Below are positions 5,308-59,768 of a stretch of DNA of 64,000 nt, in pieces. The position numbers and the translations under genes were made by a program. Position 1 is the stretch's first letter; each line of letters starts with the position of its first letter. The notes below the pieces were generated by a model. It was not told the DNA's origin. It made no database searches and was given only the letters and a program-made list of their open reading frames with translations. Source of the stretch: Patescibacteria group bacterium (GTDB lineage Bacteria; Patescibacteriota; Patescibacteriia; UBA11705; JABHMO01); NCBI GenBank assembly GCA_018818405.1, contig JAHIRY010000038.1, positions 35,449 through 99,448 of the forward strand, read 5' to 3'.

Positions 5308-5323
5308 TAAATTATTCTTTCTT

Positions 5324-11423: not shown

Positions 11424-12605
11424 TTACGGCGCCATCTCCCGTAATTTTTTTATTGCCACGGTCAGAGATTTGATAAAAGTATTTACTTCAACTTCAGTAT
11501 TATCTTTTCCCAACGAGATACGAATACTGCCATGCGCCCATTTCGGCTGAACGCCCATGGCGGTCAGCACATGCGACGGTTCCAACGAACCGGATGAACA
11601 CGCGGATCCGGTGGAAACCGCAACGCCATCCATATCGAGAAGCATGAGAATGCTCTCTCCTTCGGCATTTTGAAAACTCACATTGATAATATTCGGCAAT
11701 TGAAATTCTCCTTTGCCGTTGAATCTCACATTTTCGAATTTTTCCAATTCACCGGCAATTTTACTTTTTATTTTTTTTATTTTCTGAATATTTTTTTCCT
11801 GTTCATCAGCCACCAGTTCGACCGCTTTGCCAAGACCGACAATCCCCGGGACATTCAATGTTCCCGGCCGCAAACTGTATTCCTGATGTCCGCCGAAAGC
11901 GAGCGGCTCAAACTTTATTCCTCTTTTTGCAAACAATCCGCCGATTCCTTTCGGTCCGAATATTTTGTGTCCGGAAAAAGAAAGAAAATCAACGCCCAGC
12001 CAATTTACCTGGCAGGGCAAATAATTAAAAGCTTGCACTGCGTCAACATGAAAATAAATCGGCAAACCTTTTTCTCCGCGCCGGTCTCTTTCAACTTTTA
12101 TGATTTCGCTGATTTCTCTGATCGGTTGAATTGATCCGACTTCATTATTGGCGTACATAATGGAAATCAAAACGGTATTCGGCTGAATCAATTCTTTCAA
12201 TTTTTCCAATTTCACAACGCCCGCCGAGTCAACTTCAACAAAACCAGCTTCAATCCCCTCTTTTTTTGAAATCGTTTTAAATACTTCCAAAACAGAAGGA
12301 TGTTCTATTTTCGAAGTGATGATATGCAAATTGTCTTGTGTCTGCAAAAGTGAATTTATAATTCCCTGAATCGCCAAATTATTACTCTCGGTAGCGCCGG
12401 AAGTAAAAATAATTTCCTGCGTTTCACAACTCAAATAATTGGCGATTTTTTCTCTCGCATCATCAATCGCGCTCAGCGCTGATTGTCCCGACGAATGCGC
12501 TGAATTGGGATTGCCGAAATTTTCCTGAAAAAACGGCAACATTTCCTGCAACACGCGAGGATCGACTTTTGTTGTCGCTGAATTATCGTAATAAATTTCT
12601 TTCAT
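11424..12605 (-). CDS. iscS: cysteine desulfurase (NifS/IscS class)
   Basis: PLP-lysine region SGHKIFGPKGIGGL, conserved C-terminal active-site Cys loop. Confidence 0.9.
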   Translation of the reverse strand: MKEIYYDNSATTKVDPRVLQEMLPFFQENFGNPNSAHSSGQSALSAIDDAREKIANYLSCETQEIIFTSGATESNNLAIQGIINSLLQTQDNLHIITSKIEHPSVLEVFKTISKKEGIEAGFVEVDSAGVVKLEKLKELIQPNTVLISIMYANNEVGSIQPIREISEIIKVERDRRGEKGLPIYFHVDAVQAFNYLPCQVNWLGVDFLSFSGHKIFGPKGIGGLFAKRGIKFEPLAFGGHQEYSLRPGTLNVPGIVGLGKAVELVADEQEKNIQKIKKIKSKIAGELEKFENVRFNGKGEFQLPNIINVSFQNAEGESILMLLDMDGVAVSTGSACSSGSLEPSHVLTAMGVQPKWAHGSIRISLGKDNTEVEVNTFIKSLTVAIKKLREMAP

Positions 12606-12641: not shown

Positions 12642-12902
12642 TTATTCCACGGCAATCACTTCCGTCACTTCAGGCACGGCTTTTTTTATTTTCGCTTCTA
12701 CGAAATTTTTCAAAGTAATCGAAGCCATGGGACAATGCTTGCACGCTCCCTGCAAACGCACTTTTACTATTCCATTGTCATCAACTTCGACAAATTCCAA
12801 ATCGCCGCCATCCATCTGAATCGCCGGACGAATTTCTTCTATTACTTTTTTTACATCTTGCAACATAAACAATTTATTATTTTTAAAATTTGTTAATCGC
12901 AT
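12642..12902 (-). CDS. NifU C-terminal-domain (Nfu-type) Fe-S carrier; the start may be the internal MLQDVKK at 12866
   Basis: IRPAIQMDGGDLEFVEV...CKHCPMAS motif. Confidence 0.75.
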   Translation of the reverse strand: MRLTNFKNNKLFMLQDVKKVIEEIRPAIQMDGGDLEFVEVDDNGIVKVRLQGACKHCPMASITLKNFVEAKIKKAVPEVTEVIAVE

Positions 12903-24831: not shown

Positions 24832-27800
24832 CTACGGTAATACTATAATTTTTCCATCGAAAGAAGTCCCCGGCTCTCCGTGCTCATCCAGTGGATCACA
24901 CAATGGAAAATCACCTTCATTATAACACCCATCCGCACCCCCGCACGTCCCATTACACCACCCCCAATTATCCGTCACAATCACCCGCGGAATATACTGG
25001 CAGGCGGGATTGCCTTGGTATGTTGTTCTGCAGTAATTCGGGTCTGCGCCGGCAGTGCCGCAATCCTTCAAAACAGGATCAGACAAATTACAAGTATAAG
25101 TATTATTGTAAGAGAAATACGATTCCATGCATGCATCAGTCGTGTCGCCGAAACGATCATCCTTTTGATCGGAACATTTCCCGGTGAAGAAACATCTGCT
25201 CGGATCGCTTCCCTCTTCACATCGCGGATCGTCAGCATCATAGCACGCGGAATCATCAGAGCAAGCCAGACCGGAAACTCCGTTGCATATTCCCAACGGT
25301 TCATTGGCCGGTCTCTGACATCGAGGCTTATGATTTTGGTACTTTCCATCAACGCCCACTCCCTGAACTCTCTCACCCCAATCGATCGTCACATTTCTTA
25401 TCGGCATCTGATCATCATTCGCCCAAGCATAGAAATTCATTGTCACTGCCAACTGACCATCCAGACTTACAATATCGCCGCTCGTCTGTCCGCGAATGGT
25501 CATCGTATTGGGAATAGCGCCATACAAAACATTTCCTTTCGCGTCAGACCTGCCACTGGGTATTGCGGCCGCAATCATCGGAACACCGACTTTTTGCTCA
25601 TTACTGATATCCCAAATTTTATTAGGATTATTCAAGTAGCCTATTCCATCGGCATTGCTCGGAATGTTAATAATATTTGAGCAGGATGCGCTCGGATCGC
25701 TTTTCATTTCCGGAGGATTTGTCGCGACCACTTCTTTTAGAATAACCGTGCCGACATACCCAAATGGAGTATGCTCATATTTTTCTATTGGGCAACTATT
25801 ATTCTCCAATGTCCTGCCGACATAACATTCCGCAGATATTTCCTGCTGTGCAAAGTTATAACTGTCTATGAAAAGCCAATGTTCTGCCAAAATGCTCCGA
25901 TCAGCTTTCTGCCATATGCAATTCGCCTCATTGCGTTCAATATTTGGCAAATTGGCAGTGCAATAAACACGATTTCCAGCATTGCCGACTACCGGAGCGG
26001 TATTCACACATTCGGTATCCCAGAAGCAAGGATTGCCGGAATTCGCTCCCGATTGATTATTGCAATGGCGAAGAGTAAGAATATTGCATTCCAACGGATA
26101 TTGAGCGGTTGTACAAACATTTGAATCACTGGTGCAAGACAATCCGTTTATTTCAGGATGAATGCTGGTGCAGGTTTTTTCTTCAATATTTTGAATTTTC
26201 ATTTCGTAATAAGTCTTTGCCGCAGCAAAATACTTTTTCAAAGCATCAATACTTTGATAAACAATTCCGCCCTCAGGATAGTTCTCTTCCTGATTGCACC
26301 CAGCACCCAAAAATAAATTGTAAATAGTCTCGCCAATACCGCCCGTCAATGCCAAGGCTCCAAGCGGATTGCACTTTGGCTGATCAGGAATTTGAACGGA
26401 TTTATAAATTTCATTAGTAAATGCTTTGTTTTTTCCATTCTCATCGGATACTCCGACAGCAGTATCACAGCTTTGCTTTGATATTTCGCCGATCGCCGCA
26501 TTCGTATTGCCGGCTGCATCCTTGTACCAGCCAGCCGATTGATCAGCGGGCATATTTATCGGTTTACATTGATATGTCATTTTAAACCAATCTTCATCCT
26601 CTAGGCTACACTCATCTGTAGCGCCATCATGGTCGAATATACCGCCATCATGTTCGAATGAATTCGCTCCGCCGATATTATAATTCTTATCACAACTGGG
26701 ACGTTCAAACTTCTCGCCACCGCAATCTCTGGTCCAACAAGATGCTGTATTTCCAATGCCTCCAAACGGATCAGTATTCGCATTAATTGTTCCGGCTGAA
26801 ACATTGGAGCTTCCCACCAAGCGATCCCATAATTTGTCCGCTGTCCACCGAGTATAAACATTTGGATTGCCGCTCACGCAAGCGGAACCGTTTCCATCGC
26901 ATTCTATTCCGGCAGTACTGGAAGCTAGGCCGGCCGGCAAACAATTTTCACGAACTTCTTTTGTTTCTCCATTACACGCATCCAGAGCCCCTCCATCGCA
27001 ATCCCTATACCCTTCTTCCGTTTGATTATAATTCTGTCTCTTTTCCCAATTACTGCTTTTCAGACAATAGTAAGGACTGCCATCGCTAAATCCATAATCT
27101 TGCGGCCAGAAGCCGGCGGAATCATATTGATTCTGCAAATCCTGCAATCCGGCCAACGCTTCCGTCGGATACCAAGTAATGCAAGGATGTTCTTCTTGTT
27201 TGTTATTTTTCGGCAGACTGATGTCCTCTTGCAGACAATATCCTTCCCAGCCATGATAATCTATGGCAGTGCCTTTCTTTTTCATGCATAACCCCGGTTC
27301 ATTTCCTTTTGAGATAGGTTTTGAAGAATTGAGAGAACACTGGATAGAAGAACACATTGTTTTATTATTTATCTTTACCATGGGAGAACTATCAATTTGC
27401 GGATAATCAAAATCATCGCACTGACATTGAATATCAGGTGAATCCTGACAAAAGCCTTGTTCCGGATCTGCTGGCGAATATAATTCTGTTTTCGGCACAT
27501 ATTTTGTGATCGCCCCACCACCATATTGAACCTCTCGATAATAACAACCGTAGTCTTCATTTTTATTAATTTCCGCAAAATCCACATCCAGCCAAGAAAT
27601 ATTCGCGTTTACGTATAAATCAGTGCCTGCAATACCGGCTGGAAACGGCGAATCATCCTTCGGATAAGCACGGCATTCCGGAGCTGCAGCTTCTTGAAAT
27701 GTTCTTTCTGATTCCGAGGTCTGCACACAAATTCCACTCAAACATCGACAATTTTCTCCGCTTGGATTTGCAACAGTACAAGCATCCGTGCAATCACTAT

Positions 27801-30800
27801 CCTGTTCACAAGAGGTATCGGTTAATTGATTTACCAATCTAAAATCTTTTTCTTTATAAACTTGCCCGCGAACTTCTTCACAACTAACGACTGCCTCAAT
27901 CCTGCAAATATTGCCTAAGGAAATGCAGTTTCGTCCTCCGCTACAATCATCGGCTGCTTCGCAACGGCCATATTCTCTTTCTCCACCGCAATAACTTCCG
28001 CAATCAGCATCCGTGGAACACAACCCTTCGTTCGGATTACCAAAACAATATTGTTGACCGCAATCATTGTCATTCACACAAAGATTGCCTGAAGTTACTC
28101 CTCCGCATCTCTTGTCCGGTTCAACCCCGCGTCCCTGCCTCAAATCAAAAGAATTATAAAAATTTACCGGCGCCATATCCGGAATCGCCATTCCGGTATA
28201 ATCGAGCGAAGACCAGCTGACATTTCTATTCTGATAACCGTCAGTTTCATCCGTTCCCTTCAAAGGTTTGTTCAATGACAATAAATTATTATTATCTTCA
28301 CCGACAATGAAATGCGCGCACTTCAATGTATCTTCCGCCGGACTGAGCTTGTCGCAAACTCCGACATCATCGCAAACCTCAATATATTTATTTTTATTCG
28401 AATCCCACGCCCAGTGACTGGACTTGCAATCGTACCAAGCCGCGCATTCGCGATCGCGGACGACTTTTACTATGGAATTCGCATCATTTTTTGAAGCAAT
28501 CAATTCAAATGTACAGGCAATCTGTCTATCAGTACATGTATTAATCTGCTCGGCGCGCGCTTCTCCTGCGCAAGTCAAATAATCTTTTTCAGCATTCACA
28601 CAAGATTCGACTTTTTTACAATAATCATCTTCAGTACAATCACCCACCCGCCCCAGAGCATAACTATCAAACGTCGAAGCATTCTTTGGCGGAACAGCAC
28701 TTTGTTTATCATTTCCTTCAAAATATGTTAAATATCCCTGCCATTTCAAATCAGGTTCGCCATTGGCATTTAACATAGAGGTATCATTCATCAAAATACA
28801 ACCTTCTTTACGACTGACATCTGAACAGGAAGTCTTGTCTATGTCTTCATTATTAACATAATAATAAGCTTTTCCTTTGTCTGACAAAGTTTTATCAGTG
28901 GGATCCACGAACGCGGTGCACAAATCCGCGCTTGACTTGCAGATACCGGCCCAGCCTGAGAAATCTTCATCATTTATTCGAATAATCTGCGAATTTCCAT
29001 CTTCATAATAATTCTTTGTCTCGCATAGTACATCCGGATCATTATCATTCAGTTTCTTTTTGAACCATCCAAATATACTCTCAGAACCTTGCTGAGCTTT
29101 TCTGTATTCGCAAGTTTTATCACCCGGATCCTTAAAATAATAAGTTTCACCTTTTACTCCCTTGAATTCCTCACATCTCAAATCACTATTAGCGCACAGA
29201 GGACTGTTCTCACTATCAAAAGTATCAGGATCCAGTTTGTAAAATACATTGTTCCATTTGTCCTGGGATGGAATATAATTCCCCTCAGCATCCACCATCA
29301 AAGTCGGCAATCCCAGAGCCGTACAACCCTTTTCCGTGTTTTTACATTGTTTATCTTTTGTGTTAACGAGATAAATCAATGAATCTTTTTCTATTTCTTG
29401 AAGGTAGCAGACACCATCGTTCCAATTTCCATCCAAATAACCACACATGTTTTCATAAGTCTGTGAAAGAGCGGGAGGTTCACCGCCAACCTTTGCACGA
29501 ACTTGGAATGTACATGCTTGCAAATTTTCATTCACAACGGCTGCAGTTCCCGGTATCTGGAAAAAATTATTCGTTGGAACTGCCTCCCATTTACTCATAT
29601 AAGAGGAACACAATTCAACATTCAACGGAATTTTCTTGTATCCTTGTTCAAATGGAGACGAACTGTTCTTCGTATCAATCATCGTCTCGCAACCGACCTT
29701 GTCAGCCGAACAGATATTGGTAAAGTTTTTCAGATAATGAGTATTCTTGCCGCTGTCGCGATATTCGCGGCAACCCAGCTGAGCTTGCGGAATTTGTCTG
29801 TCAGCTTCATTTGCCGGAGTATGGGTCAGCTCATTGTCGCAGATCGCCGGAGTACTCCATGAATTTTTGATTAAATATTTGAGATCATTTACTTTTGTGA
29901 TTTTGAAATTGTCGATGTAAAAAGTTCTTTCGCACTGGGACGCGCGTATGCCTATAACACCGGAGGCATAAGTCTCATCCACACTCAAATTAAAAGTATG
30001 AAACTGCCAATCAGCATTAACCGTGCCGTCACCCAATAAAAATTTTCGATCTCCGGTGTTTATATTTTCAACCGGCCTCACATCAACATTGAAATTCGTG
30101 GGATCGCCTTTGATCCAAAAAGAAACAACATAATCACCGACTGCTGATAAAAGCGCATTTTTTGTATATATTCTTGGTGATTCAACACAACTCAATCCCT
30201 CAATCCCGTTAACAGACTCTATTTCAGTCTTCTCTTCCACCATTAAATACTGCCCATCCGCTTGTGTCGTAAGCGACATTGGACTTCCTTGCAAACTAGT
30301 TACCTCTCCGGTCGCAAAATTATTCTCATAAACAATTTCCTCATCACCGCTGAAATTGCCTTTGTATTCTCTGCAGCCGGCGGCAGGCGCTGAACATTTC
30401 TTGCCTTCGCCCGGAATTGCCATGAAAACGCATTCGCCAGTGTTCCACTGCCCCTGCCTCAGTTCGCATTGAGCCTGATCCGCGTATTGCAATGTTCGGC
30501 GATAAGGATGACAATTTTCCGAACAAGTCAGAGTCTTTGAATACAAACGATAAGAAACTCTGCCGGCATCATCGTAAAATTCACGGCAGTCGGGATTTGA
30601 TTTTACAGCGAATATTTCCGCGTTGCACCGGGTTAGATTTTCTTCCTCTGCAATCGTCATTGCCGGAGCATTTCCTCCGAGTTCTTTTTTCAATACATAA
30701 TTCTGCAATTGATAACCGGAAACTCCGCCTCCGACCCAAGTATAATAATTGGCGCACTGAGCCTCGCCCTCGGGAAGTTTCTGGCATTGCCTCAATTCGG

Positions 30801-33753
30801 AATAATATTCTTTTGATTCTCCGCCTCGCGACAATTCATCCAGATTGGTAAATTCATCGCATCCGGCGCTGGCCGCGCTGCAAGTTTTTGCAGTATTCGG
30901 CATGAAATAAAGCGGAAACTCTCCATTTTCAAAATAAGTTTTCGACTGGTTGAATGTCGCATAGCCAGCGCATTGCTGAGGACAATAATCCGCGAATCCG
31001 GCAACGCCGTTGATAGCGCGTCCGCGATCAGTCGGCGTGAAATTCTGACAGCCGACATCTTCGGCAGAACAAAGTCCGGCAAAATCAGAACAGCCTTTGT
31101 TTTTCTCGGTTTTTACCGCATCATCGGAAACATCAATATCAGCCTCAGTCTTCGGCCTGCCATAATCCGCCTCTTCAATTGTATTGTAGCAACCCAAATA
31201 TTCAGGCGCTTTTTTCACATAAACAACATTCTGGCTGGCATATTCATTGAATTCATGCATTTCGGAAATTGCCGGCAGAGAAAGTTCCTCAACCATTACA
31301 TTGTCCACGATCGCGTCTCCGCCGGCCACAGCCAATTGAAATTGCAACTTGTCAAGTACGATTGGATTCGCTCCGGTCGATACTTTCACTTGCCAAATTT
31401 TATAAATTTTTTCCCAGCTGTCCGTTGCTGTCGCCGCTGTAATATCTTTATTGGCAACAGCTGACATGGCCAATCCATCTGCATCGGGAGCAACCAATTC
31501 GATCACTGCCGACGCATTGGCCTGTTTCTTTTTCACAAACCCGGAAACCGCAAAATATCGGGCTGTTTTCTTTGGCGCGATTTCAATATTCGGAATAATT
31601 AAATTTTCCAAAGCGGCTAATTTAACGGCCGCTCCTCCTTCATAAGACTCGGAAACCACATTTTTCCCGCCCGCCCAGCCGGTGACAATGTTCGTTGATT
31701 GCAATTCATCAATTCTCCCTGAAAAAATTTCAAAATCTCCGTTTACCACCAGATTCGTTCCCAATCCGCTCGCTGTTTTCACAAATCTCGTGCAACCCTC
31801 TTGATTCGGATTGCATTGCGCGTTTTCGATATTTTTATTCAATAAAATTTTTGAAGCATCCGCGTCCACCCAATTCCAAGAATTATCCGCCAATATTTTC
31901 TCAGTGCTGTACCACTTGCAACCCGCGTTCGTCGCGTCGCAAACCGATCGATCGACAGTGTTCATCACCAAATTAACGGATTTTCCCTTCCTCATCTGCA
32001 AAGAACGGCAACTGTCATAAACGCCCGAACATTCATCTCCGCCCAATCGGAAAACATTTTTCTCAGCCGCGCAATATCCCCAGGAAAGACACTTGCCCTT
32101 TGCATCAGTGCGCACACAGCTCGGCATATCAACGCAGACTTCAGCTCGAGTGTTCGAACCCGCGTCAATCAACAATGGTCCGTTAACCAACGCATTGCAT
32201 TGCGTTGCCGGATATTTCAAAATCCAATTCGGATCAATCAACTGCCTGAATTTATAACCCGCGTCATTTGGATTAGTTTGATTGAATTGACTGATTACAT
32301 AATTCAATGAGACAACTTCTTCCGAACCAACCTGACTGGCGGCAAGCTCCCAGCCGATTGGAATTATTCTCGCTGTTCTCAGTTTCACCAAATTGGAATA
32401 ACAAAAACCGTATTGATAGCAATCGGCATTGGAATTTCTCGCATCATACTTTCCGATCAAACGGCGCTTGCCGTCAATCAGTCCCTGATCAATGGCCTCC
32501 TGCACTGACAGCGGCTTGTCCTGAGTTGAACGGCGAACAGCATCGGCAAACGCATTATCCATGACGCAATTGTTTATCTGCCTTGTCCGGGGACAAGAGG
32601 TATATTCAGTCAATAAATCAATTTGCTTGGTGGAATAAGTGAAATTAACCTGCTTTATTTTTATTACGTCTTTTTCCACCTGCTTTTTCGTATCAAACAT
32701 ATTGTCAGCCGGCTGATAACTCTCCGAAGTTTGCACCAATCCCTTTTCAAAAAACTTCTTGCTCATGAAGTCAACAAATCCTTTTGAAATAAAAGTATTA
32801 ACAAAAGCGCCGATTACCGATTCCGGTATATCGGAAATCACATAACTGGCCGGTTCCATTTCAGTATTCTTCGCCTCGGTAATTGCTTGCAGTTCGTTTG
32901 TCATGTGTCCGCGCAAAAGGAAAGAAGGCGTTTTTATAATATCGCCACTCAGACTGGTTATCGCCTTTGCTCCTAAATTTTCCGTTCTTTGCTTTTCTTC
33001 CGCCATGCTTGTAATGCGCTGTTGTCTCTGCAATTCATCTTCCATTGTCAGATACATCCCGATGTCAGAACTTTTGCGATCAAACTTCACTTCAATGATT
33101 CTCTGCAATGCGATAAGAGTACCGGCGGCCGGATTATCAGAAATATTATCAGCTGTTCGTTTAACATCCTCGACAAATGATTCCCAATTATCTAACAAAT
33201 TACTTAAAGAACAATCCGGTTTTACCCTTGTTTTATCTTTTAGATATTGATTATCCAAACCAATAACGATTTTCAATTTTACATCAGCTCCGGGATCGCA
33301 AATATCAAATCCCAAATCATCCCAAAATACATCTCTGACATAGGTAATGAATGTCGCTGCCGTGTAATCCATTATATCCTGCTTGAATTTTTCCCACGAC
33401 TGAGTGTAAAACATCGGTCCCTCGCCCTTGTCGCCGGTAGTGACAAAATTATAATATTGAGACGCCGCTGTTTGCGCCAGAAAAACCATAGTATTGCGCA
33501 AAGTAATGGCTGCGGATAAAATCAATGCTTTCTGCAAACGATTTTCCACATTTTTTTGAGTTTTATCAACCGTTTTCTCAATGTTGCGCTTGACTTCAAA
33601 ACCCATATCCTGCGCATTTTTAGCGGGATCAATGACCGGCAATTCAGCGCGAGCCTCTCGCGGGAACAACATGCCGGCAGCAATGAAATTTGAAAACGCA
33701 AAACAAAACACCAAAATCGCGATTGATATTTTTTTGTTTTTATTTAAAGTCAT
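24832..33753 (-). CDS. giant (2973 aa) Cys-rich secreted/surface protein with CBM4/9-like beta-sandwich segments
   Basis: uninterrupted 8.9-kb ORF; N-terminal signal/TM; many Cys; NGDFE...GW CBM-like blocks. Confidence 0.85.
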   Translation of the reverse strand: MTLNKNKKISIAILVFCFAFSNFIAAGMLFPREARAELPVIDPAKNAQDMGFEVKRNIEKTVDKTQKNVENRLQKALILSAAITLRNTMVFLAQTAASQYYNFVTTGDKGEGPMFYTQSWEKFKQDIMDYTAATFITYVRDVFWDDLGFDICDPGADVKLKIVIGLDNQYLKDKTRVKPDCSLSNLLDNWESFVEDVKRTADNISDNPAAGTLIALQRIIEVKFDRKSSDIGMYLTMEDELQRQQRITSMAEEKQRTENLGAKAITSLSGDIIKTPSFLLRGHMTNELQAITEAKNTEMEPASYVISDIPESVIGAFVNTFISKGFVDFMSKKFFEKGLVQTSESYQPADNMFDTKKQVEKDVIKIKQVNFTYSTKQIDLLTEYTSCPRTRQINNCVMDNAFADAVRRSTQDKPLSVQEAIDQGLIDGKRRLIGKYDARNSNADCYQYGFCYSNLVKLRTARIIPIGWELAASQVGSEEVVSLNYVISQFNQTNPNDAGYKFRQLIDPNWILKYPATQCNALVNGPLLIDAGSNTRAEVCVDMPSCVRTDAKGKCLSWGYCAAEKNVFRLGGDECSGVYDSCRSLQMRKGKSVNLVMNTVDRSVCDATNAGCKWYSTEKILADNSWNWVDADASKILLNKNIENAQCNPNQEGCTRFVKTASGLGTNLVVNGDFEIFSGRIDELQSTNIVTGWAGGKNVVSESYEGGAAVKLAALENLIIPNIEIAPKKTARYFAVSGFVKKKQANASAVIELVAPDADGLAMSAVANKDITAATATDSWEKIYKIWQVKVSTGANPIVLDKLQFQLAVAGGDAIVDNVMVEELSLPAISEMHEFNEYASQNVVYVKKAPEYLGCYNTIEEADYGRPKTEADIDVSDDAVKTEKNKGCSDFAGLCSAEDVGCQNFTPTDRGRAINGVAGFADYCPQQCAGYATFNQSKTYFENGEFPLYFMPNTAKTCSAASAGCDEFTNLDELSRGGESKEYYSELRQCQKLPEGEAQCANYYTWVGGGVSGYQLQNYVLKKELGGNAPAMTIAEEENLTRCNAEIFAVKSNPDCREFYDDAGRVSYRLYSKTLTCSENCHPYRRTLQYADQAQCELRQGQWNTGECVFMAIPGEGKKCSAPAAGCREYKGNFSGDEEIVYENNFATGEVTSLQGSPMSLTTQADGQYLMVEEKTEIESVNGIEGLSCVESPRIYTKNALLSAVGDYVVSFWIKGDPTNFNVDVRPVENINTGDRKFLLGDGTVNADWQFHTFNLSVDETYASGVIGIRASQCERTFYIDNFKITKVNDLKYLIKNSWSTPAICDNELTHTPANEADRQIPQAQLGCREYRDSGKNTHYLKNFTNICSADKVGCETMIDTKNSSSPFEQGYKKIPLNVELCSSYMSKWEAVPTNNFFQIPGTAAVVNENLQACTFQVRAKVGGEPPALSQTYENMCGYLDGNWNDGVCYLQEIEKDSLIYLVNTKDKQCKNTEKGCTALGLPTLMVDAEGNYIPSQDKWNNVFYKLDPDTFDSENSPLCANSDLRCEEFKGVKGETYYFKDPGDKTCEYRKAQQGSESIFGWFKKKLNDNDPDVLCETKNYYEDGNSQIIRINDEDFSGWAGICKSSADLCTAFVDPTDKTLSDKGKAYYYVNNEDIDKTSCSDVSRKEGCILMNDTSMLNANGEPDLKWQGYLTYFEGNDKQSAVPPKNASTFDSYALGRVGDCTEDDYCKKVESCVNAEKDYLTCAGEARAEQINTCTDRQIACTFELIASKNDANSIVKVVRDRECAAWYDCKSSHWAWDSNKNKYIEVCDDVGVCDKLSPAEDTLKCAHFIVGEDNNNLLSLNKPLKGTDETDGYQNRNVSWSSLDYTGMAIPDMAPVNFYNSFDLRQGRGVEPDKRCGGVTSGNLCVNDNDCGQQYCFGNPNEGLCSTDADCGSYCGGEREYGRCEAADDCSGGRNCISLGNICRIEAVVSCEEVRGQVYKEKDFRLVNQLTDTSCEQDSDCTDACTVANPSGENCRCLSGICVQTSESERTFQEAAAPECRAYPKDDSPFPAGIAGTDLYVNANISWLDVDFAEINKNEDYGCYYREVQYGGGAITKYVPKTELYSPADPEQGFCQDSPDIQCQCDDFDYPQIDSSPMVKINNKTMCSSIQCSLNSSKPISKGNEPGLCMKKKGTAIDYHGWEGYCLQEDISLPKNNKQEEHPCITWYPTEALAGLQDLQNQYDSAGFWPQDYGFSDGSPYYCLKSSNWEKRQNYNQTEEGYRDCDGGALDACNGETKEVRENCLPAGLASSTAGIECDGNGSACVSGNPNVYTRWTADKLWDRLVGSSNVSAGTINANTDPFGGIGNTASCWTRDCGGEKFERPSCDKNYNIGGANSFEHDGGIFDHDGATDECSLEDEDWFKMTYQCKPINMPADQSAGWYKDAAGNTNAAIGEISKQSCDTAVGVSDENGKNKAFTNEIYKSVQIPDQPKCNPLGALALTGGIGETIYNLFLGAGCNQEENYPEGGIVYQSIDALKKYFAAAKTYYEMKIQNIEEKTCTSIHPEINGLSCTSDSNVCTTAQYPLECNILTLRHCNNQSGANSGNPCFWDTECVNTAPVVGNAGNRVYCTANLPNIERNEANCIWQKADRSILAEHWLFIDSYNFAQQEISAECYVGRTLENNSCPIEKYEHTPFGYVGTVILKEVVATNPPEMKSDPSASCSNIINIPSNADGIGYLNNPNKIWDISNEQKVGVPMIAAAIPSGRSDAKGNVLYGAIPNTMTIRGQTSGDIVSLDGQLAVTMNFYAWANDDQMPIRNVTIDWGERVQGVGVDGKYQNHKPRCQRPANEPLGICNGVSGLACSDDSACYDADDPRCEEGSDPSRCFFTGKCSDQKDDRFGDTTDACMESYFSYNNTYTCNLSDPVLKDCGTAGADPNYCRTTYQGNPACQYIPRVIVTDNWGWCNGTCGGADGCYNEGDFPLCDPLDEHGEPGTSFDGKIIVLP

Positions 33754-33781: not shown

Positions 33782-33860
33782 GTCGCACTTCGACAAGCTC
33801 AGTGTGACAGGGGGGGGGAAGCGCCCCCTCTCACTTGTCAGGCTGAGCCTGCCGAAGCCC
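33782..33860. repeat. repeat family R5 (inverted unit, G9/C5 hairpin, partial direct unit), downstream of the GIY-YIG gene
   Basis: GTCGCACTTCGACAAGCTCAGTGTGAC, AGGGGGGGGGAAGCGCCCCCT, CTGAGCCTGCCGAAG. Confidence 0.75.
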
Positions 33861-34143
33861 CGTTCGACAACTCCTTCAATCTTTCAATATTCCCCTCAAT
33901 TAATGCAACTTTCTTTCTGCGGCTCCAACCTTTTATTTGTTTTTCTCTGGCGATCGCGTCATTCACATAATAATGTTCTTCCGCATATACCAATCGAACC
34001 GGCCGCCGCGAATATGTATAACTTTTTTCGCTTATTCCCAAATTATGTTCATCCAGCCTTCGTTCAATATTATTTGTTATTCCCGTATACAAACTCCGAT
34101 CGCTGCATTCAACTATATAAACCGTGTATATCTTTCTAAACAT
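33838..34143 (-). CDS. small GIY-YIG nuclease, second paralog (ORF to 34167; likely start is MFRKIY at 34143)
   Basis: YTVYIVECSDRSLYTGITNNIERRLDEH GIY-YIG core; C-terminus is read through the R5 repeat. Confidence 0.8.
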   Translation of the reverse strand: MFRKIYTVYIVECSDRSLYTGITNNIERRLDEHNLGISEKSYTYSRRPVRLVYAEEHYYVNDAIAREKQIKGWSRRKKVALIEGNIERLKELSNGASAGSA

Positions 34144-34160
34144 TTGCAATAAACTTTTAT

Positions 34161-34311
34161 GTCGCACTTCGGCAGGCTCAGTGTGACATGAATTTAACTG
34201 TCACACTGAGGCTAAAAGCCTGTCCCGAGTCGCATCGAGCGGAAGCGTGCTATCATCGTCATCGCAATAACTGTCACACTGAGCCTGCCGAAGTGCCGCT
34301 TCGCTTAACAC
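34161..34311. repeat. repeat family R5: one inverted and two direct units (GTCACACTGAGCCTGCCGAAGTGC...TTCGCTTAACAC)
   Basis: 34161-34187 (inverted), 34200-34222, 34273-34311; 11-bp stem between the first two. Confidence 0.8.
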
Positions 34312-35295: not shown

Positions 35296-36138
35296 TCACC
35301 ATTTTAAATTCCGCGCCAAGAAAATCCAGTCTTCCACTGACAATTCCTGCGCGCGAACCGTCTCCTTCAAACCCAACTCGTGAAAAACGCTGAGAATCTT
35401 CAAAAGAGGAATATTCAATTTTTCCGCCAGATTGCTCTTTAAAAGTTTTCGCTTCGCGCCAAAACCCGCGCGCGCTATTTCAAAAAGCCGCGTTGAATCA
35501 ATATTATATTTATCGGAACGAATCCGACCGAGTCTGATCACCGCGCTTTCCACTTTCGGTACGGGAAAAAAACAATTGTGGCTGACGGAAAAAAGAATCT
35601 TCGGCTCGCAGGAAAAACGGACAGCCAATGACAGCAAATTCATATCGCCCGCGCGCGCCAAAATCCGCTGAGCCACTTCCTTTTGAATCATGAGAATCAT
35701 TTCTTCCGGCGGATAATCGCATTCCAAAAATCGTCTGATGAAATTGCTCGTAATATTGTAAGGCAAATTGGCGACAATCTTGTACGGTTTTCCGCCAAAC
35801 TCTTTCTTTATCTCAGCCATCGGTATTTTCAAAATATCAATGTTTTTTATTTTTAAATTTTCATATTTCTTTCCCAATTCTTCGGCCAAAACATCTGACA
35901 ATTTTTTGTCTTTTTCCACCGCGAGAACATGGCCGGTCCGCTCCGCCAGCTCAGCTGTCAAAAATCCGAGGCCCGGTCCGACTTCCAGCACATTGACGGT
36001 CTTTTTTAATTCCGCCGAATTGATAATTTTCTTCAATATATTTTTATCAATCAAAAAATTCTGGCTGAAATATTTTTTCGGCATCAATTGATATTTTTCC
36101 AATAATTCGAATATCTCTTGTTTCATTTTGAATAACAA
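35296..36138 (-). CDS. rsmA: 16S rRNA (adenine1518/1519-N6)-dimethyltransferase
   Basis: FSQNFLID, LEVGPGLGFLT SAM motif, NLPYNIT. Confidence 0.85.
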   Translation of the reverse strand: MLFKMKQEIFELLEKYQLMPKKYFSQNFLIDKNILKKIINSAELKKTVNVLEVGPGLGFLTAELAERTGHVLAVEKDKKLSDVLAEELGKKYENLKIKNIDILKIPMAEIKKEFGGKPYKIVANLPYNITSNFIRRFLECDYPPEEMILMIQKEVAQRILARAGDMNLLSLAVRFSCEPKILFSVSHNCFFPVPKVESAVIRLGRIRSDKYNIDSTRLFEIARAGFGAKRKLLKSNLAEKLNIPLLKILSVFHELGLKETVRAQELSVEDWIFLARNLKW

Positions 36139-36180
36139 AAATTATTTGTAATATTCCGCCGTCATCCGAAACAATCCGTT

Positions 36181-36238
36181 CGGAAATGTGGAATTGTAAG
36201 GGTTCAACATGTTGAACCCTTACAATTCCACATTTCCG
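36181..36238. repeat. 58-bp perfect palindrome (29-bp arms) between prfB and rsmA
   Basis: CGGAAATGTGGAATTGTAAGGGTTCAACA|TGTTGAACCCTTACAATTCCACATTTCCG verified base by base. Confidence 0.9.
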
Positions 36239-36262
36239 CAATTCCGTTATAATTCAACGTCC

Positions 36263-37357
36263 CTATTTTACGATGCTGCGCAAATACGATTCCATTAGCG
36301 GCATCAATTCTCCATCCAAAACCGCGTCAACATCAGTTGCTTCAAATCCGGTTCGATGATCTTTTACCAATTTGTAAGGATGAATCACATACGATCGCGC
36401 CTGATTTCCCCAGGCGGCTTCCGTGTATTCGCCGCGCAATTTTTGCCGTTCTTCTTCATGCTCGGCTTCAAAATATTTTTGCAATTTTGATTTCAAAACT
36501 TTCATTGCCGTTTCCTTGTTTTGCAATTGCGATCTTTCATTCTGACAGCTGACAACGATTTTTGTCGGCAGATGCGTTATTCTCACCGCCGAATCAGTCT
36601 TGTTCACTCCCTGCCCTCCGTGTCCGCCCGCCCTGAAAGTATCAATCCGCAAATCATTCGGATCGATTTCAATTTCTTTCAATTCTTCCACCATTGGCAA
36701 AACTTCAACCAAGGCAAAAGAAGTATGCCTCATCTTTTCCGCGTCAAAAGGAGAAATGCGCACCAATCGATGAACGCCGTTTTCGCTTTTGAAATAACCG
36801 TAACTGTTTTTTCCCGACACTTCAAACAAAACGCTTTTTATTCCAGCCTCTCCGCCGGATGAGATCGTGATTATTTTCGAATTCCAATTTCGCTTTTCAC
36901 AAAACCGCAAATACATTCTCAAGATCATTTCCGCCCAATCCTGCGCGTCTGTTCCGCCGGCTCCGGCATGAATGGCAACAATGCAATCGCCGCGATCGTA
37001 TTTTCCCTGAAACAACAAATCGATTTCCAGCTCATCAAATCTTTTTTCCAATCGGCCAAGCTGTTCTTCAATTTCTTTTTGCAGATTAACTTCCCTGTCT
37101 TCCTTGTCCATTTGCGCCAATTCTTCCAGATCTTTTATTTCATTTTTCATTTTTTCCCAATTTTCGATTTCCTGCTCAAAATCACTCGCCTCTTGACTCA
37201 CTTGTTTTGCTCGAGACTGATCGCTCCAAAATCCGGGCCGGCTCATTTGTTCTTGCAATTCAATGATTCTCTGTCTTTTTTCATCAATTCGAATAAGTTG
37301 CCAGACTTTTTGCAGGCGGTCTTTCAATTCTCCAATTTTTATTATTGTTTCATTCAC
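36263..37357 (-). CDS. prfB: peptide chain release factor 2, single uninterrupted ORF (no programmed +1 frameshift)
   Basis: SPF tripeptide, GGQ motif (GGHGGQGVNKT), RF2-specific N-terminus. Confidence 0.9.
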   Translation of the reverse strand: MNETIIKIGELKDRLQKVWQLIRIDEKRQRIIELQEQMSRPGFWSDQSRAKQVSQEASDFEQEIENWEKMKNEIKDLEELAQMDKEDREVNLQKEIEEQLGRLEKRFDELEIDLLFQGKYDRGDCIVAIHAGAGGTDAQDWAEMILRMYLRFCEKRNWNSKIITISSGGEAGIKSVLFEVSGKNSYGYFKSENGVHRLVRISPFDAEKMRHTSFALVEVLPMVEELKEIEIDPNDLRIDTFRAGGHGGQGVNKTDSAVRITHLPTKIVVSCQNERSQLQNKETAMKVLKSKLQKYFEAEHEEERQKLRGEYTEAAWGNQARSYVIHPYKLVKDHRTGFEATDVDAVLDGELMPLMESYLRSIVK

Positions 37358-47486: not shown

Positions 47487-47526
47487 ACAATATTTAAAAT
47501 AAAAATTAATTCGCAATGAATTTTTA

Positions 47527-47669
47527 TCGTTTCATGGCGGTGTAGAGACGCATTGCAATGCGTCGCTACATCGCCATGAAGCGATGACGGCGGCGTGTGT
47601 TTTGTCGCGACAATATACGGCGCGGCGGTAAGTAGCGGCGGGTCTAGACCCGCCGCTACTTACCGCCGC
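47527..47669. repeat. GC-rich nested palindromes: a 9-bp outer stem enclosing an 18-bp perfect palindrome, plus a separate 48-bp perfect palindrome
   Basis: TTCATGGCG...GACGCATTGCAATGCGTC...CGCCATGAA; GCGGCGGTAAGTAGCGGCGGGTCT|AGACCCGCCGCTACTTACCGCCGC. Confidence 0.85.
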
Positions 47670-48488: not shown

Positions 48489-51400
48489 TTATTTACACAC
48501 AGGGAAAGCAAGCCCCGGCACAACACTGTAATTGTAAGTATAACCGTCGGAGTTTGTTTCCAATCGATATTTCAATTCATAACAATTTTGCAAGCCTGAA
48601 GCGGAAGCTTTGTATGAATAAACCGGATGATCGGTTTCATGCCCGGCGTAAATATTGGCAAAAAGCTGATTACTGCTATTATAACATGTTTCGCCGTTAT
48701 AGCCTTGGGCGCAGTTGACGCAGGCAAATCCCGGAACAGCGCATTGATAACTCAAATCCGGACATTTCAAAATCGGAGTTTCGTCCTCGACCGAGCAAAT
48801 TTCACCGGTATAATCGCCGCTCTCCGCCGGTGTTTCCCATTTGAAATGATTCTCCGGATCTCTCGGCAATTCCGCGCCGAGTTCCCGACCCAATTCTCCC
48901 TGCCATGACGGCCAAACGCTGAATGTTTGTCCGCGGACATAAGATCCCGATTCGAGCATTGGGACTTTATTTCCATGAGCATTCTTGTAATTTTCCAGAT
49001 AAATTCTCATCAAAACCATGTCGCTGATTCTCTTTGTATCGCGAATGATTTGCGATTTGTCCGGATCAGAGCTCGCGTCGCGGTTCAGATTGAACTTGAT
49101 GTATTTCACCATTTGGCTGTAAATGTTCATTGTTTCCGCGCCGGAATTTCGGGAATAACCCAGCAAATAAATATTATTGTAAACCGTCTTGTTAGCGGAA
49201 ATATTGGCCGCTGAAATATAAATGCTCGAACCGTCCTGCGCCGCAGCATAACAATTTCCCTGAAGATCGCAATCCACTTCCACTTTTGAAGTGCTCGCAG
49301 CCGGATTCGGCGCATAATTCTGATACCACACATCAGGCGGCAATGCTTCCGGATTTTCATAAATTCTGAGAGAAATAACATCAGCTGACGGAATTCCGTC
49401 CGGAGTGAAGAAATATTGCGCCAAGAGTTTCGGCTCCTCAGCCGGATCATCGGCGGAAACGCATTTTTTGTCATCCGGAAAATCAATCAATCCGTTTCGA
49501 TCATTGTCAATTCCGTCTCTGCATTGATTCTCGGATTGAAGACGCACTTGCTCTGCCGCCGCTCCCACATCCGAGCCGAATTGGCTGAACAGATTTACAT
49601 AATTAAATGAACCGCCAGAACAATGATCATCTCCGGTACAAACGCCGATCGCGTTTTGCTGATCATCGGAATTTTTCAAATTATGTTCAAAATCAAGATG
49701 AACAATCAAATTCGGATCATTCTGATCAGTTAAAACATATTGATTTGCAATTATCTCTCCGGTTGTTCTTGCCGTTTTCCAAATTCTAAAATCTTCCAAA
49801 TACCCGTTCAAGCCTCTATCCGGAGTTCCAAAAGATGAACCCACATAAATATCTTTATTCTGAGAAACGCCAGCTACAGGAAAGCTGGAAGCAGCAAAAT
49901 TGCTTCTTTCTCCATCAATAAAAATCTGATACTGCAATCCTCCCGGATGTTCTCCGTCATAAACGACCGAAATTGCATGATACCCTGCAGAAACCGATTG
50001 CGTTGTCTGCAATTTGATGGAATTTAACTGACCATATCTCAGATTCCAATAAACTTTGTTTACCAATCGACCATTTTCCTGAATCGGAAACAAACCAATC
50101 AAAATCTGCGGACATCCTCCGGGAACGGCAGCTTCACAATTGAGATTTTTCGTAAAAATCGGTTGAAACACTTGCCCCGACGGCTCCGGCACATATATCA
50201 GTGATTCAATAGTCCACGGTTTGCTGAAATCTGAAAAGTCCAATTTATTTTGCAAAGCGTCGGTATATGGAATTCGCAATTTATCGTTTTGATCAAATTT
50301 AATGGCAAATCTGTTCGGCGGGATTGCCACTGCCGGCGATTCTTTCAATTTCGGCAGATCATCCGTCGTGTCATTTCCTTCGCCGAAATCGCGGCAGTAG
50401 AAGAGACCGACATTATATTCTTTTTCATTCAGATGAACCGGTACTTTTGTTCCCGTTCCGGTTTCATATTCCAACAAATCCCATTTATCCTCTTCAAAAT
50501 GTTCCGGCGACCATGGATTCTCGCAAATCATCATTTCTATTGTTGCCGCGCCTTCGACAAATGCTCCGGTCGAATCAGCGGAATTAACATCAGCGCAAAC
50601 GCAATTTTCCGCGCCTTCCGCACAGGCGACCGCCGGATCCTGCGTCGCGTCGCGGCATACGCGGCGAATCTCGCCCAGAAAACCGCCTTGGTCAAGGCCC
50701 AATTTGTCAACCGTTATCACCGCTTTCGCGTGAATCTGAGTTTCTCCGTTTTTCGCCGTTGTTGTCACTTTAACCTCGTTTTTATTCTTTTTATCAGATC
50801 CGTTCTGCACAACATTGCAAACTTCCTCATCCTGTCCTTCCACCGCTTCCATCGAACAAATTTTCCCGACAATGGAAGAATCATCGGTTCTCCATTCCCA
50901 GCGCCAATCATAAACTCCGGGAATTGCCTGAATCAAATTTCCTTTGCTCTTGGCGATTGCCCTGTAATCTTCCACATGATCCTGATCGAGAATCAATCGG
51001 TAATCAGGATCCAGACTCACCTGATCGAGCTTGCAAACTTCATTGCCGGTTGAAAATTGAGTGGTGAATTGTCCCAAAACATCGCCGCAAATATTGGTCA
51101 TGTCATCCATTACAACCAAGATTTGTTTTCCGGCGGGCAGAGCTTGTTTCGGAGTAATCATAATGGCGGTTCTTCTGTCAGCCGGATTTTGCTCGCCCGT
51201 GCTCTCAACCGAAACATTATCTATCTCAATACGGCACAAATAAGCTTCCTGCGCAAATGTCACTTTTGCCAATAAATTCTTCAGCGCCAATTTCAATCTC
51301 TGGAAAAATCCCATGGCAGTCTCCGCCGGACATGCCTCTGCGCTCAAATAAAATAATTTTATATTTGTTGAAATATTTTGCTCTCCGATTTTCTTGTTGA

Positions 51401-54400
51401 ACGGAATATAAATCAATGCATTCCGGCAAACACCCGCCGAATTTCTAGCCGGAACTATGTTATTCACATCCATGCGAATATCCGGAGACACGCATTGTCT
51501 GTCGCGAAAAGTCAATTCCGTTGTTCCTGTTTTTGAAATCGGATTATCGCCCGTTTCAGTGCCGGTGGCGCTGATATCGGTGCTGTCCTGCGCATAATGC
51601 TTTTCCGGATCATACAAATTCAGAATATCAATATTGCCGACAACCGTTGCCGACTGATACGGACTCTGACCGATGGACTGACCGCCCGGCTCGCATTGAT
51701 CATCCTCTCCGCTTCCAACAATTCCATCTCCGCAGGCAGAGCCGGCTTCAACCGATGAACCTTGATTCAGACATTTTCCATTGCAATATGAAGGAAATCG
51801 ACAGACGCATCCCTGATCAACGCCATAGACGCAACCGGAACCATCGGCTTTTTTGCATTCTGACTCGCATTCTTCATTTCCATCAATCGTTCCATTTCCG
51901 CAACAATTCTCCGTCACCGCGCCGATACAGCTCGTAAATCCTCTCCACAAACATCTTTCATTGCAATCCGGATTGTCAGCCAATGAACAGACACAGCCCT
52001 GAACTCCGTAAGCGCAAGCTGAATTATTGGCGTTTTTACAAATGGCTTCGCATTCTTCTCCGCCTTCCAGCTCTCCGTTGCCGCAGAGCGCTGACGCCGC
52101 CGGCTCTCCTTTTTTATATTTTGAACCTTCATTTAAACATTTGTTCGAACAACCGTCTCCATTGGAAGTATTGCCGTCATCGCAATCTTCGCCTTCTTCC
52201 ACTATTCCATTGCCGCAGACAAATCCGGCAGCGGTTCCCGCTTTCAAACAACCGGCAGTGCAAGCAGGATCCTTTGCCACGCAAACGCAACCTGCATCTT
52301 CATCTTCCGGGTCGCAGGCTTCGCCATCTTTCAAGAATTGACAAGCGAAATCGCATTCTTCCGTATATGCAATATCTTCGATCGAATAAGTTCCGTCTTC
52401 CCTGCCGTTGCCGCAACATTTTTCATTTTCCGCTCCGGTGCAAAGATTCGGCACCGCCTCGCGCAAACAGTTGGCGGAACAACCGTCTCCATTGGCAATG
52501 TTATCAATTACATCGCATTCTTCACCGCTTTCCCTGATCCCGTTTCCGCAAACCGATGCCAAAGAACCGCTGCCTCTGGACAAACATTTGTCAGTGCAAA
52601 ATTCCGGCAACCCCAAATGATAAAGCGTATCGGAAATTGTCGCCACATTCGGCTTGCCGCTCATCCATGCCCAAGTATAATCATATTGATTCAAAATCTG
52701 TCCCTCCGGATCGCAAGCATCCGGCGCGCTCCTCGGCAGAGCTGAATATGAGATTCTCTGTTCCTTCGTCTCGCTGAGATAACTCTGAGGCATGACTGAA
52801 ACCGAATTGATCCGGCATTTCTCTTCTGTATTTTTTGTTTTGAAAACCCAGCTGAACGAGTCCGTTGTTCCTTGTTCCGCTAGCGCGGTGCTGTAATTCA
52901 AACCTGTCAGATCGACTCCGCTCGCACTCTGAGTATTTCCGGAGATTACCACTCGATAAAATTTGTTCGGCAGTAATTCGTTGCTCGGATTTACAGTCAA
53001 TCGGTTGGTCAGTTTTCCCTCTGCGTCCAATTCGAATTGATAATTCGGAATACTTCCCGCCAAATCAACTTCATCAAAAGTGACGCAATCGGCGCCCGCT
53101 CTGCAGGCAAACAATTTAACATTATCCGTATTCAAGGTTTCAGACCCGTCGACAGCAACATTAATCAAACTTGAAGATTTCATCTGAATATTGAAATCAG
53201 CGCCAAAACCGGCATTAATGCACGCTTCATCGCAAGCCGGAAAATATGAAACCACTTTCGGATCAGCGAATTTTATTTCCAGTTGCGCGTCCTTTGAAAC
53301 ATTGCCGGCAGTACGGAAAATCATTGAATCGGTCGCGATGGTTGCGTATGCTCGCACTCCGACAAGTTCATCAACGGTTGTTTCCAAATTTACCGGATTC
53401 GCTTTTGCCTCGGCTGACAATCCGAAAATTCCAATATCTTTTCGCAATCCATCTTCATCGAATGCGTTTCTCTGGAATGAAACTCGCTCGCTGTTCTCCC
53501 GCGGATCATTCGCCGTCCAGCGCCAATTTTCATCCATTAGCGAAATATCCTGGCACTGATATTGTCCGGAAACCATGAAAGATTCCGTGTCATCCAGTGA
53601 ATCAATCAAACCTTTGATCGGCTTCATCAACAATGTATCGGCAGAACACAATTCCGGCAAAGTTCTGAATTGCCATGAATAATCTCTGGGCATGAATTCT
53701 CCTTTTTCTGTCGCAATACCGTCCGCGCCTCCTTTTATTTCAACTTTATACAATGTATTTTTGAACAAATTGGCGTAAAATCTTGGACCCTCCGCTATCG
53801 GAGCCGCTCCGCCCTTAAACAAAGACTTATTCAAAGTTCTGGCCAAATGAAATTCAGTCAACTGTTTTCCGGAAACTTCACACTCGCAATTCGGCGTTCC
53901 GGCGGCGCAAGAACTTCCGTTTCTGAGACAAACGGCAGATTCATTGGTCGTGCCGATATCATTCGGATCAATCGCCCCGACCGGCTGAGTAATGCAATTC
54001 TCTTCGCACTTGTCCAGATCGCATTGGCCGAGATCAACGGTGCAAGTGCAGGCAGCGGAAGTTTCAACGCATTCTTCACTTTTATTTTCCTCGCATCTCA
54101 GCGTACGCAGAGGATACTCGCATTTTTTTATCGTAATATTATTATTCAATGTCGCTGAATTGATAATCATGTTAAAAGTTCCGGAAATCATTCCATTCGG
54201 ACAAGCGTCAATAGAACCTCTGAACGGCGAAGGCGATTGCGGCAAATATCCGCGAGTGCAGGATCGCTCCAATATTTTCGGGACTTTCGGCAAGGAGCCG
54301 GTGCTCACAATCCAGGCAAACTCAGAATCAGCGCCCTCTGCCGGAGCAACGCATCCGTCTGCAAGGTTTGCGCAAATTCCGGTTGCGCAACATATTCTTC

Positions 54401-59621: not shown

Positions 59622-59739
59622 AAAACATTTCATCCGATCGCCGGCCGTACGGAACAAAAATCTTTGTTCCCCGTTTTCATTAAAAAAATTTTAAATTATT
59701 CATAAATAAAATATCAACGCAACATCCCGCGCAAAATAA

Positions 59740-59768
59740 AAAAATTCCGCAAACTGCGGAATTTTTTG
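59740..59768 (-). terminator. intrinsic terminator after rpsU
   Basis: AATTCCGCA-AAC-TGCGGAATT with flanking A/T runs. Confidence 0.7.

Follow-up and report, generated by a model that had tools for sequence, protein, structure and literature searches.

Why should two genes of translation, prfB and rsmA, be separated by a long and flawless palindrome? The question is raised by a 64,000-nt stretch of contig JAHIRY010000038.1 (hereafter the window, numbered from its first letter), which comes from a Patescibacterium, a member of the Candidate Phyla Radiation (CPR) close to the Kuenenbacteria and Falkowbacteria. The palindrome, termed P1, occupies positions 36181-36238. We conclude that P1 is most likely a variant or fossil of a known kind of hairpin-forming DNA element, the ‘double foot’ repetitive extragenic palindrome (REP); its membership in this class is probable rather than proven, and we hold it with about even confidence. 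This reading is favored because two double-foot REPs, termed P2 and P3, are located 11 kb away in the same window, and because P1 shares their geometry, differing in a single base of the head.

P1 is a genuine and perfect palindrome

P1 consists of two 29-bp arms that pair without a mismatch or a spacer (CGGAAATGTGGAATTGTAAGGGTTCAACA|TGTTGAACCCTTACAATTCCACATTTCCG), at exactly the positions reported in a first-pass annotation of the window. When the window was shuffled 100 times with its dinucleotide composition preserved, the longest arm of a palindrome without a loop had a mean length of 8.45 bp and a maximum of 11 bp, and only ~3e-13 palindromes with arms of at least 29 bp are expected. P1 thus lies far beyond chance, and in this respect the annotation was right. 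An assembler artefact is ruled out, as contig L001 from the ENA, a MEGAHIT assembly (k=141), agrees with the window at 100% identity over 13.6 kb, with P1 included and unique flanks on both of its sides; the sample from which it derives is possibly the same as that of the window. Because the assembly used k=141, P1 plus its flanks must be present within reads. A Logan assembly of the same strain (L002) is also 100% identical to the window; of the two, L001 spans P1.

Two nested registers can be discerned in P1. The inner core, GTAA-GGGTTCAACA|TGTTGAACCC-TTAC (28 bp, 36196-36223), has the geometry of a double-foot REP, with GTAA replacing GTAG in both feet. Seven bases outside of the inner foot, a GTGG foot on the plus strand (36188-36191) pairs with its complement CCAC (36228-36231, plus strand), and this outer pair is formally a GT[AG]G...C[TC]AC double foot with an 18-nt half-stem. 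In addition, three tandem 8-mers, CGGAATTG CGGAAATG TGGAATTG (36223-36246, minus strand), cross the boundary of P1 that faces prfB, with one unit positioned outside of the palindrome and two within it; the array passes this boundary and not the one that faces rsmA. The flanks of P1, CAATCCGTT and CAATTCCGTT, form a near-direct repeat that belongs to this local array and does not constitute a clean target-site duplication. A miniature inverted-repeat transposable element would have terminal inverted repeats, a flanking direct repeat and multiple copies; the window contains no further copies of P1, and its other long palindromes lack a flanking duplication. A smaller CCGAA...TTCGG hairpin that had been described as preceding P1 does exist (36166-36183, plus strand; 36166-36170 pairs with 36179-36183 to form a 5-bp stem with an 8-nt loop), but it overlaps the first 3 nt of P1 and is at chance level. 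It does not form in the centroid fold of the spacer and is not counted as part of the element. A YGGAAWTG motif was also considered as a family of sites and set aside, because it is over-represented in the window but is a common, dispersed coding-strand word.

Double-foot REPs occur in the same genome and in its relatives

In double-foot REPs, a 5’ GT[AG]G lies within 0-2 nt of the hairpin foot and the complementary C[TC]AC closes the 3’ side (PMC6006769). Two such elements are present in the window: P3, a perfect 48-bp palindrome (47622-47669) with the core GTAG-CGGCGGGTCT|AGACCCGCCG-CTAC at 47632-47659, and P2, a 60-bp palindrome with three mismatches (47526-47585) and the core GTAG-AGACGCATTG|CAATGCGTCG-CTAC at 47542-47569. 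They share one spacer, 36 nt apart, between two minus-strand genes that encode TSP3-repeat proteins, and P3 begins 24 nt past the point at which the upstream one of these genes stops, the same spacing as is seen at P1. When anchored at the center, the arms of both elements read GTAG, 10 nt, center (i.e. GTAG-N20-CTAC). The sequence GGCGGT(AA)GTAGCG(G/A)CG is common to P2 and P3, and the sequences further inward differ; the sequence of P1 is unrelated to that of either element.

The comparative material included 80 prfB loci from species-representative genomes and three closest relatives. The same GTAG form is found in loci L085 (two copies), L018, L040, L055, L013, L090 (two copies) and L092. 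Its prominence was assessed using all 256 possible 4-mers as heads (X-N19..21-rc(X), perfect stems) in 1.40 Mb of DNA, comprising the window and the related loci. The GTAG head yields nine matches with eight distinct sequences and is surpassed only by AAAA, whose 13 matches are canonical bidirectional terminators; every other head that is not A-rich has at most two matches. Locus L085, from the closest relative, contains two perfect palindromes (9036-9087 and 9918-9953) with an identical 28-bp core, GTAGGGAACGGTCGCGACCGTTCCCTAC, that are extended differently, by 12 bp and 4 bp, with each extension being perfectly palindromic. Nested feet are also observed, as the double-foot palindrome at 12251-12297 of L090 reads GTAG-GGTTTT-GTAG and a GTAA-GTAG arrangement is present in P3. 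The inner stem sequences of the CPR members vary, even within one genome. P2, P3 and the GTAG elements of the relatives are thus double-foot REPs, a known kind of element that is here found in Patescibacteria and Melainabacteria.

A different sequence, GG(C/T)TCAAC(C/A), recurs near the centers of several unrelated CPR palindromes (L069 14882-14911, L056 17980-18008, L070 18972-19001 and window 36196-36223), and the palindromes of L069 and L056 share GGCTCAACC exactly. It may represent a second motif class or may be a product of chance (~0.03 after a rough multiple-comparison correction).

P1 resembles the double-foot REPs in geometry and departs from them in its head

Several features of P1 are those of the GTAG class. 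Its inner foot is positioned exactly 10 nt from the center, which is the class offset, and is followed by GGG, as in L085 (GTAGGGAAC), L040 and L092 (GTAGGGGCG in both) and L055 (GTAGGGACA). P1 is symmetric through to its center, like nearly all members of the class, and its outer GTGG...CCAC pair recalls the nested feet at 12251-12297 of L090 and the GTAA-GTAG arrangement in P3. REPs have a fully paired stem of 7-20 nt and a loop of 2-5 nt; P1 conforms to this description in its inner register (8-9 bp with a 2-4 nt self-complementary loop) and in its outer register (16-17 bp with a 2-4 nt loop). REPs also have G or C at three or more of the first four basal stem positions, or a stem G+C content of at least 50% (PMC6006769), and the bottom of the inner stem in P1, GGGT, agrees with the first of these alternatives.

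Other observations weigh against membership. The inner GTAA/TTAC foot departs from the GT[AG]G rule at position 4; GTAA is absent from the published heads GYAG, GYRG, GTRG, GTMG and GTGG (PMC3733652), and in the enzymes tested so far cleavage depends critically on position 4 of the head (PMC8266576). The outer register formally agrees with GT[AG]G/C[TC]AC, and an arm of 29 nt is expected to contain a GT[AG]G in ~20% of cases; the GTGG double foot of P1 is unique in the 1.4 Mb and could be a chance occurrence, while its stem begins with AATT and has a G+C content of 33%, below the 50% value. One-mismatch variants of GTAG are not enriched at the class offset (two among ~30 non-GTAG palindromes, as compared to ~1.4 expected) and were therefore dropped as statistical support for the membership of P1. 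Classical REPs are high in copy number. The arm, core and a 16-mer of P1 have no second copy in the window when up to three mismatches are allowed, and a fuzzy search of all fetched related loci (1.4 Mb) found no P1-like sequence. In a 20-mer scan of public metagenome contigs, two unrelated chance matches were obtained, and because the source contig is evidently absent from that collection, the scan leaves the rest of the genome uncovered. Finally, tblastn detects no RayT-like open reading frame (ORF), which would encode the cognate type of transposase, in the window. A REP-type element, the outcome that the first-pass annotation had named as refuting its reading of P1, is the best-supported account of it, given the GTAG REPs 11 kb away, but the additional copies of P1 that it had proposed to search for did not materialize in the window or in the fetched loci. 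The 28-bp cores and perfect symmetry also brought to mind a Xer/dif-like or protelomerase site, a candidate that was rejected because the palindromes differ within one genome and are linked to RayT genes.

RayT-like genes of the relatives contain the palindrome in frame

A transposase of the type that acts on REPs is encoded in several of the related loci. In L013 (14111-14677), L018 (11737-12273), L055 (18295-18813) and L092 (10001-10573), which belong to Patescibacteria and one Melainabacterium, a GTAG...CTAC palindrome lies in frame inside of a RayT-like Y1_Tnp (PF01797) gene, between the segments that encode the HUH and Tyr motifs. The four palindromes occupy three different frames relative to GTAG, which indicates that the in-gene palindrome is an element acting at the level of DNA. 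Consistently, an alignment of the protein family contains a variable insert, R(G/D)GV(T/S/I)P(P/S)L(Q/R), whose sequence is that of a palindrome of this type when translated. Members of the family are named ‘REP element-mobilizing transposase RayT’ in some source databases. On the Patescibacteria contig L090, a RayT gene is located 2 kb from two GTAG palindromes (12251-12297 and 12827-12854). The presence of REPs within the reading frame of RayT is not novel in itself: in subclass 2.4 of the TnpA_REP transposases the REPs sit in frame within the gene, and the cognate REPs of this subclass include ‘double foot’ elements that begin with GT[AG]G on the 5’ side and end with C[TC]AC on the 3’ side (PMC6006769, Quentin et al. 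2018). Their extension to the CPR appears to be new. A separate layout that resembles a REPtron was noted in a Saccharibacteria locus (L067), where a RayT-like ORF (4663-5115) is flanked by palindromes composed of inverted GCGGGTTCGACCCGC units (4542-4592 and 5263-5316), and a third copy of the palindrome is positioned 3 kb off (1499-1547).

P1 is lineage-specific and lies at a synteny breakpoint

The gene names prfB and rsmA that had been assigned from the ORFs are correct. The prfB gene (36263-37357, minus strand) encodes a release factor 2 (RF2) of 364 amino acids with PCRF and RF-1 domains and RF2-named homologues, and its best identity to any other database protein is 72-73%. It is an uninterrupted single ORF that starts with GTG and shows no sign of a programmed +1 frameshift site, a feature that occurs in many bacterial prfB genes. 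The rsmA/ksgA gene (35296-36126, minus strand) encodes the 16S rRNA adenine dimethyltransferase, a RrnaAD (KsgA/RsmA) methyltransferase; its start was placed at the ATG at 36126, and one gene caller favors the ATG at 36087. On the minus-strand transcript the prfB stop codon TAG (36265-36263) is followed by 24 nt, P1, 54 nt and the rsmA ATG, such that P1 is extragenic, contained within a 136-nt spacer (36127-36262). There is no T-run within 0-2 nt of P1 on either strand and a terminator scan lists none here, in keeping with the first-pass view that P1 is not a canonical terminator; promoter-like sites are likewise not predicted in the spacer. Canonical bidirectional terminators with an A-run, stem and T-run are present elsewhere in the window (2088-2132 and 59739-59767). 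Folding of the spacer RNA (166 nt) yields a predicted energy of -58.9 kcal/mol (z = -9.6 relative to shuffled sequences), with P1 as a stem of 27 bp that is closed by a loop of 4 nt. No Rfam family matches the window at gathering thresholds, and a permissive search returns generic miRNA-precursor models alone (21-39 bits, as compared to gathering scores of 70-249).

The conservation of this arrangement was examined by folding the 110 nt past the prfB stop codon in every locus of the comparison set. No recurrent strong hairpin is found 3’ of prfB among ~80 relatives, and the sole hairpin in the set, in L040, is a canonical A-run/T-run terminator. The usual gene order is htrA, prfB, variable content, rsmA and a conserved hypothetical gene, with prfB and rsmA often separated by 0.6-8.7 kb that contains other genes. 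In the closest relatives (L085, L087 and L005), the intervening 2-9 kb encodes a PGA_cap protein, an epimerase that is NAD-dependent, a transporter of the MFS type and other proteins, whereas tsaC (Sua5/YrdC) occupies the slot in more distant relatives. In L032 and L044 prfB and rsmA directly abut, with a spacer of 47-60 nt that lacks a hairpin. The island seen at 11096-14891 of L085 and 11126-19800 of L087, which measures 3.7-8.7 kb and includes further envelope or glycosylation genes, is absent from the corresponding position in the window (36127-36262), and none of the island genes were found anywhere in the window. The prfB-rsmA slot is thus a hotspot of gene-content variation, and P1 is lineage-specific and placed at a synteny breakpoint, an arrangement that speaks against prfB and rsmA being joined by conserved regulation. 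The locus-specific roles that had initially been suggested for P1, as an operator, as a processing signal for prfB and rsmA or as a recombination site, accordingly gain no support from the comparison.

Alternative explanations for P1

The main competitor, which we view as a real but clearly lesser possibility, dispenses with REP ancestry altogether: a replication template switch (U-turn or fold-back copying) at the junction left by loss of the island could have duplicated, in inverted orientation, 29 bp of the 3’ flank of prfB, producing a recent and essentially neutral palindrome in situ. Such an event would account for perfect symmetry through the center, for the uniqueness of the sequence, for the location of P1 exactly at the synteny breakpoint and for a tandem 8-mer array that continues across one boundary only. 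Fully symmetric palindromes that lack GTAG and have arms of 14-25 bp also occur sporadically in CPR loci, and template switching is known to homogenize and extend inverted repeats (PMC5941160, PMC7202029, PMC13100816). However, an origin in situ leaves unexplained why a GTAG-like foot followed by GGG falls at the exact class offset and why GTGG is present further out, and double-foot REPs in the same genome have been extended in a similar manner.

It is unlikely that P1 is a selected RNA hairpin, functioning as a terminator without a U-tract, as a stabilizer of the 3’ end of the prfB mRNA, or as an RNase III site that uncouples prfB from rsmA. Its position in the sense transcript, 24 nt past the prfB stop, and its extremely stable predicted fold fit this explanation, as does the identical 24-nt spacing of P3 from a stop codon; a perfect duplex of 27-29 bp is moreover long enough for RNase III. 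Against it, no hairpin is conserved at the prfB-rsmA junction, the genome uses canonical terminators elsewhere, and there is no promoter-like site between P1 and rsmA. An RNA hairpin also needs neither perfect DNA symmetry nor a self-complementary loop, and no tolerance of G-U pairs is seen; two of the three arm mismatches in P2 would be C-A on the mRNA-sense strand, a point that carries little weight. We regard it as quite improbable that P1 served in recombination or marks a scar where the island was lost, such as the target of a site-specific recombinase or nuclease through which the genes between prfB and rsmA came or went. The relatives do carry 0.6-8.7 kb of variable genes at the position of P1, two palindromes with an identical core bound an inserted orphan gene in L085, two GTAG palindromes flank a NERD/UPF0102 gene in L090, and inverted-repeat elements flank an inserted GIY-YIG gene in the window. 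Yet the island boundaries of L085 and L087 lack such palindromes, P1, P2 and P3 all differ such that no single recombinase site is evident, and the cargo gene of L085 is an orphan without a homologue by which mobility could be traced. That P1 is an operator through which a dimeric transcription factor (LexA or another) controls rsmA is scarcely credible: P1 has two-fold symmetry and a location upstream of rsmA, but 58 bp far exceeds known operators, no promoter-like site overlaps or follows P1, the relatives lack the palindrome, neither neighboring gene encodes a regulator, and the half-site is not found before other genes in the 64 kb. The one paper retrieved on perfect palindromes in connection with Patescibacteria (PMC8565304) has no bearing on this idea, as it mentions the phylum in its references alone.

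A proposed origin of P1 and its possible effect on RNA

If P1 is a double-foot REP, its history can be modeled by analogy with REP/TnpA_REP systems. Single-stranded DNA, such as the lagging-strand template, would allow the element to fold into a hairpin, and a Y1 HUH transposase (RayT/TnpA_REP, similar to subclass 2.4) that is presumably encoded elsewhere in the genome would recognize the 4-nt foot together with the stem. An enzyme of the RayT type could thereby seed elements in tolerant spacers. Loss of the island that close relatives retain would have opened an unoccupied spacer behind prfB, in which P1 now lies. After seeding, a core of 28 bp may have grown outward on both sides until the element reached 58 bp, with the arms held identical throughout. 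Arm-onto-arm copying by template switching or fold-back synthesis is the likely process, as it is documented to homogenize and extend inverted repeats (PMC7202029, PMC5941160, PMC13100816). As the tandem 8-mers pass only the prfB-side boundary, we infer that the flank on this side was copied in inverted form to the other, which would make the outer arm next to prfB the original and the one next to rsmA its inverted copy. Arm copying would explain the perfection of P1, its self-complementary center and the presence of the foot mutation (G-to-A, producing GTAA) as a mirror image in both arms. The GTAA change probably makes P1 a poor substrate, and hence a fossil or variant REP.

Transcripts that read out of prfB would carry a perfect hairpin of 27-29 bp located 24 nt past the stop codon. 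This RNA hairpin may block 3’-to-5’ exonucleases or be cut by RNase III, partly uncoupling prfB from rsmA. Any influence of P1 on the stability of the prfB mRNA and on read-through into rsmA may therefore be a side effect, as in classical REPs, and not a conserved function.

Genes bounded by hairpins

Several genes in the window and the related loci are bounded by palindromes or hairpins. In L085, the two palindromes bound an insertion of ~0.9 kb between htrA and prfB that contains an opposite-strand, lipoprotein-like gene of 202 amino acids, for which no homologue was found among 5.8 billion proteins. In L090, the palindromes at 12251-12297 and 12827-12854 flank a gene of 119 amino acids that encodes a nuclease-like NERD/UPF0102 protein. 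The window contains a dispersed 23-nt repeat, CTTCGGCAGGCTCAGTGTGACAG, with seven copies (33788-33857, 34167-34293 and 60067-60175). A small GIY-YIG gene (33838-34167, minus strand) is enclosed by two inverted pairs of CTTCGGCAGGCTCAGTGTGACAG, each of which forms a long hairpin followed by TGCGACAT; by comparison with L085, the gene has been inserted. The leader of rpsU (S21) contains CTTCGGCAGGCTCAGTGTGACAG in three tandem copies. Elsewhere, the window contains two giant minus-strand ORFs (24832-33753, 2973 amino acids, and 48489-56957, 2822 amino acids), the first of which has no Pfam family on record.

Because the orphan gene of L085, the nuclease-like gene of L090 and the GIY-YIG gene of the window are each bounded by hairpins or palindromes, a speculative and in our estimate improbable extension can be formulated, in which double-foot REP palindromes in streamlined CPR genomes mark, and possibly mediate, the gain and loss of small gene cassettes, with P1 being the solo site that remained after RayT- or hairpin-mediated excision of the PGA_cap-epimerase-MFS island. 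If true, this would constitute a hairpin-bounded cassette system, somewhat like integron attC sites, that is driven by a Y1 HUH enzyme.

Relation to known elements and significance

P1 is similar to the double-foot REPs of TnpA_REP subclass 2.4 (PMC6006769) in being extragenic and hairpin-forming, in having a 4-nt foot at both ends and a fully paired stem, and in the G-C pairs at the bottom of its inner stem. It differs from them in its inner GTAA foot and in an outer GTGG register with an AT-rich 18-nt half-stem. Typical REPs are 20-40 bp in length, whereas P1 is 58 bp, perfect and single-copy in the 64 kb. The CPR elements as a group also contrast with the high-copy, near-identical families of classical REPs in that their members differ in the inner stem. 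Long hairpins composed of inverted REP units located at the 3’ ends of genes are known as REPINs (REP doublets forming hairpins) or as doublets in bacterial interspersed mosaic elements (BIMEs), and REPINs are thought to be mobilized by a single-copy RayT (PMC3116915, Bertels & Rainey 2011; PMC2817692, Nunvar et al. 2010). The clustering of P2 and P3, 36 nt apart, resembles BIMEs. REPINs consist of two REPs and a spacer and number tens to hundreds per genome, whereas P1 has no spacer and no second copy was detected in the DNA searched. Quasipalindrome correction and inverted-repeat extension by replication template switching (PMC7202029, PMC5941160, PMC13100816) fit the identity of the arms, their outward growth and the mirrored foot mutation; they are a mutational process and not a family of elements, and leave the foot motif at a fixed offset unaccounted for. 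Like an intrinsic terminator, P1 is a stable hairpin soon after a stop codon in the sense transcript, but it lacks a T-run and its stem of 27-29 bp is longer than the usual 5-15 bp.

P1 is best read as genomic ‘weather’ in a tolerant spacer and not as a control element for two translation genes. GTAG double-foot REPs and RayT genes with in-frame REPs, known from Cyanobacteria, Bacteroidetes and scattered phyla, are now also found in Patescibacteria, where the copies are sequence-diverse, unusually long and perfectly symmetric palindromes that are apparently growing outward. This offers a simple explanation to annotators who encounter long perfect palindromes in CPR assemblies, and it supplies a modest set of natural examples from which the growth of palindromes and the homogenization of their arms can be studied in genomes with reduced repair capacity.

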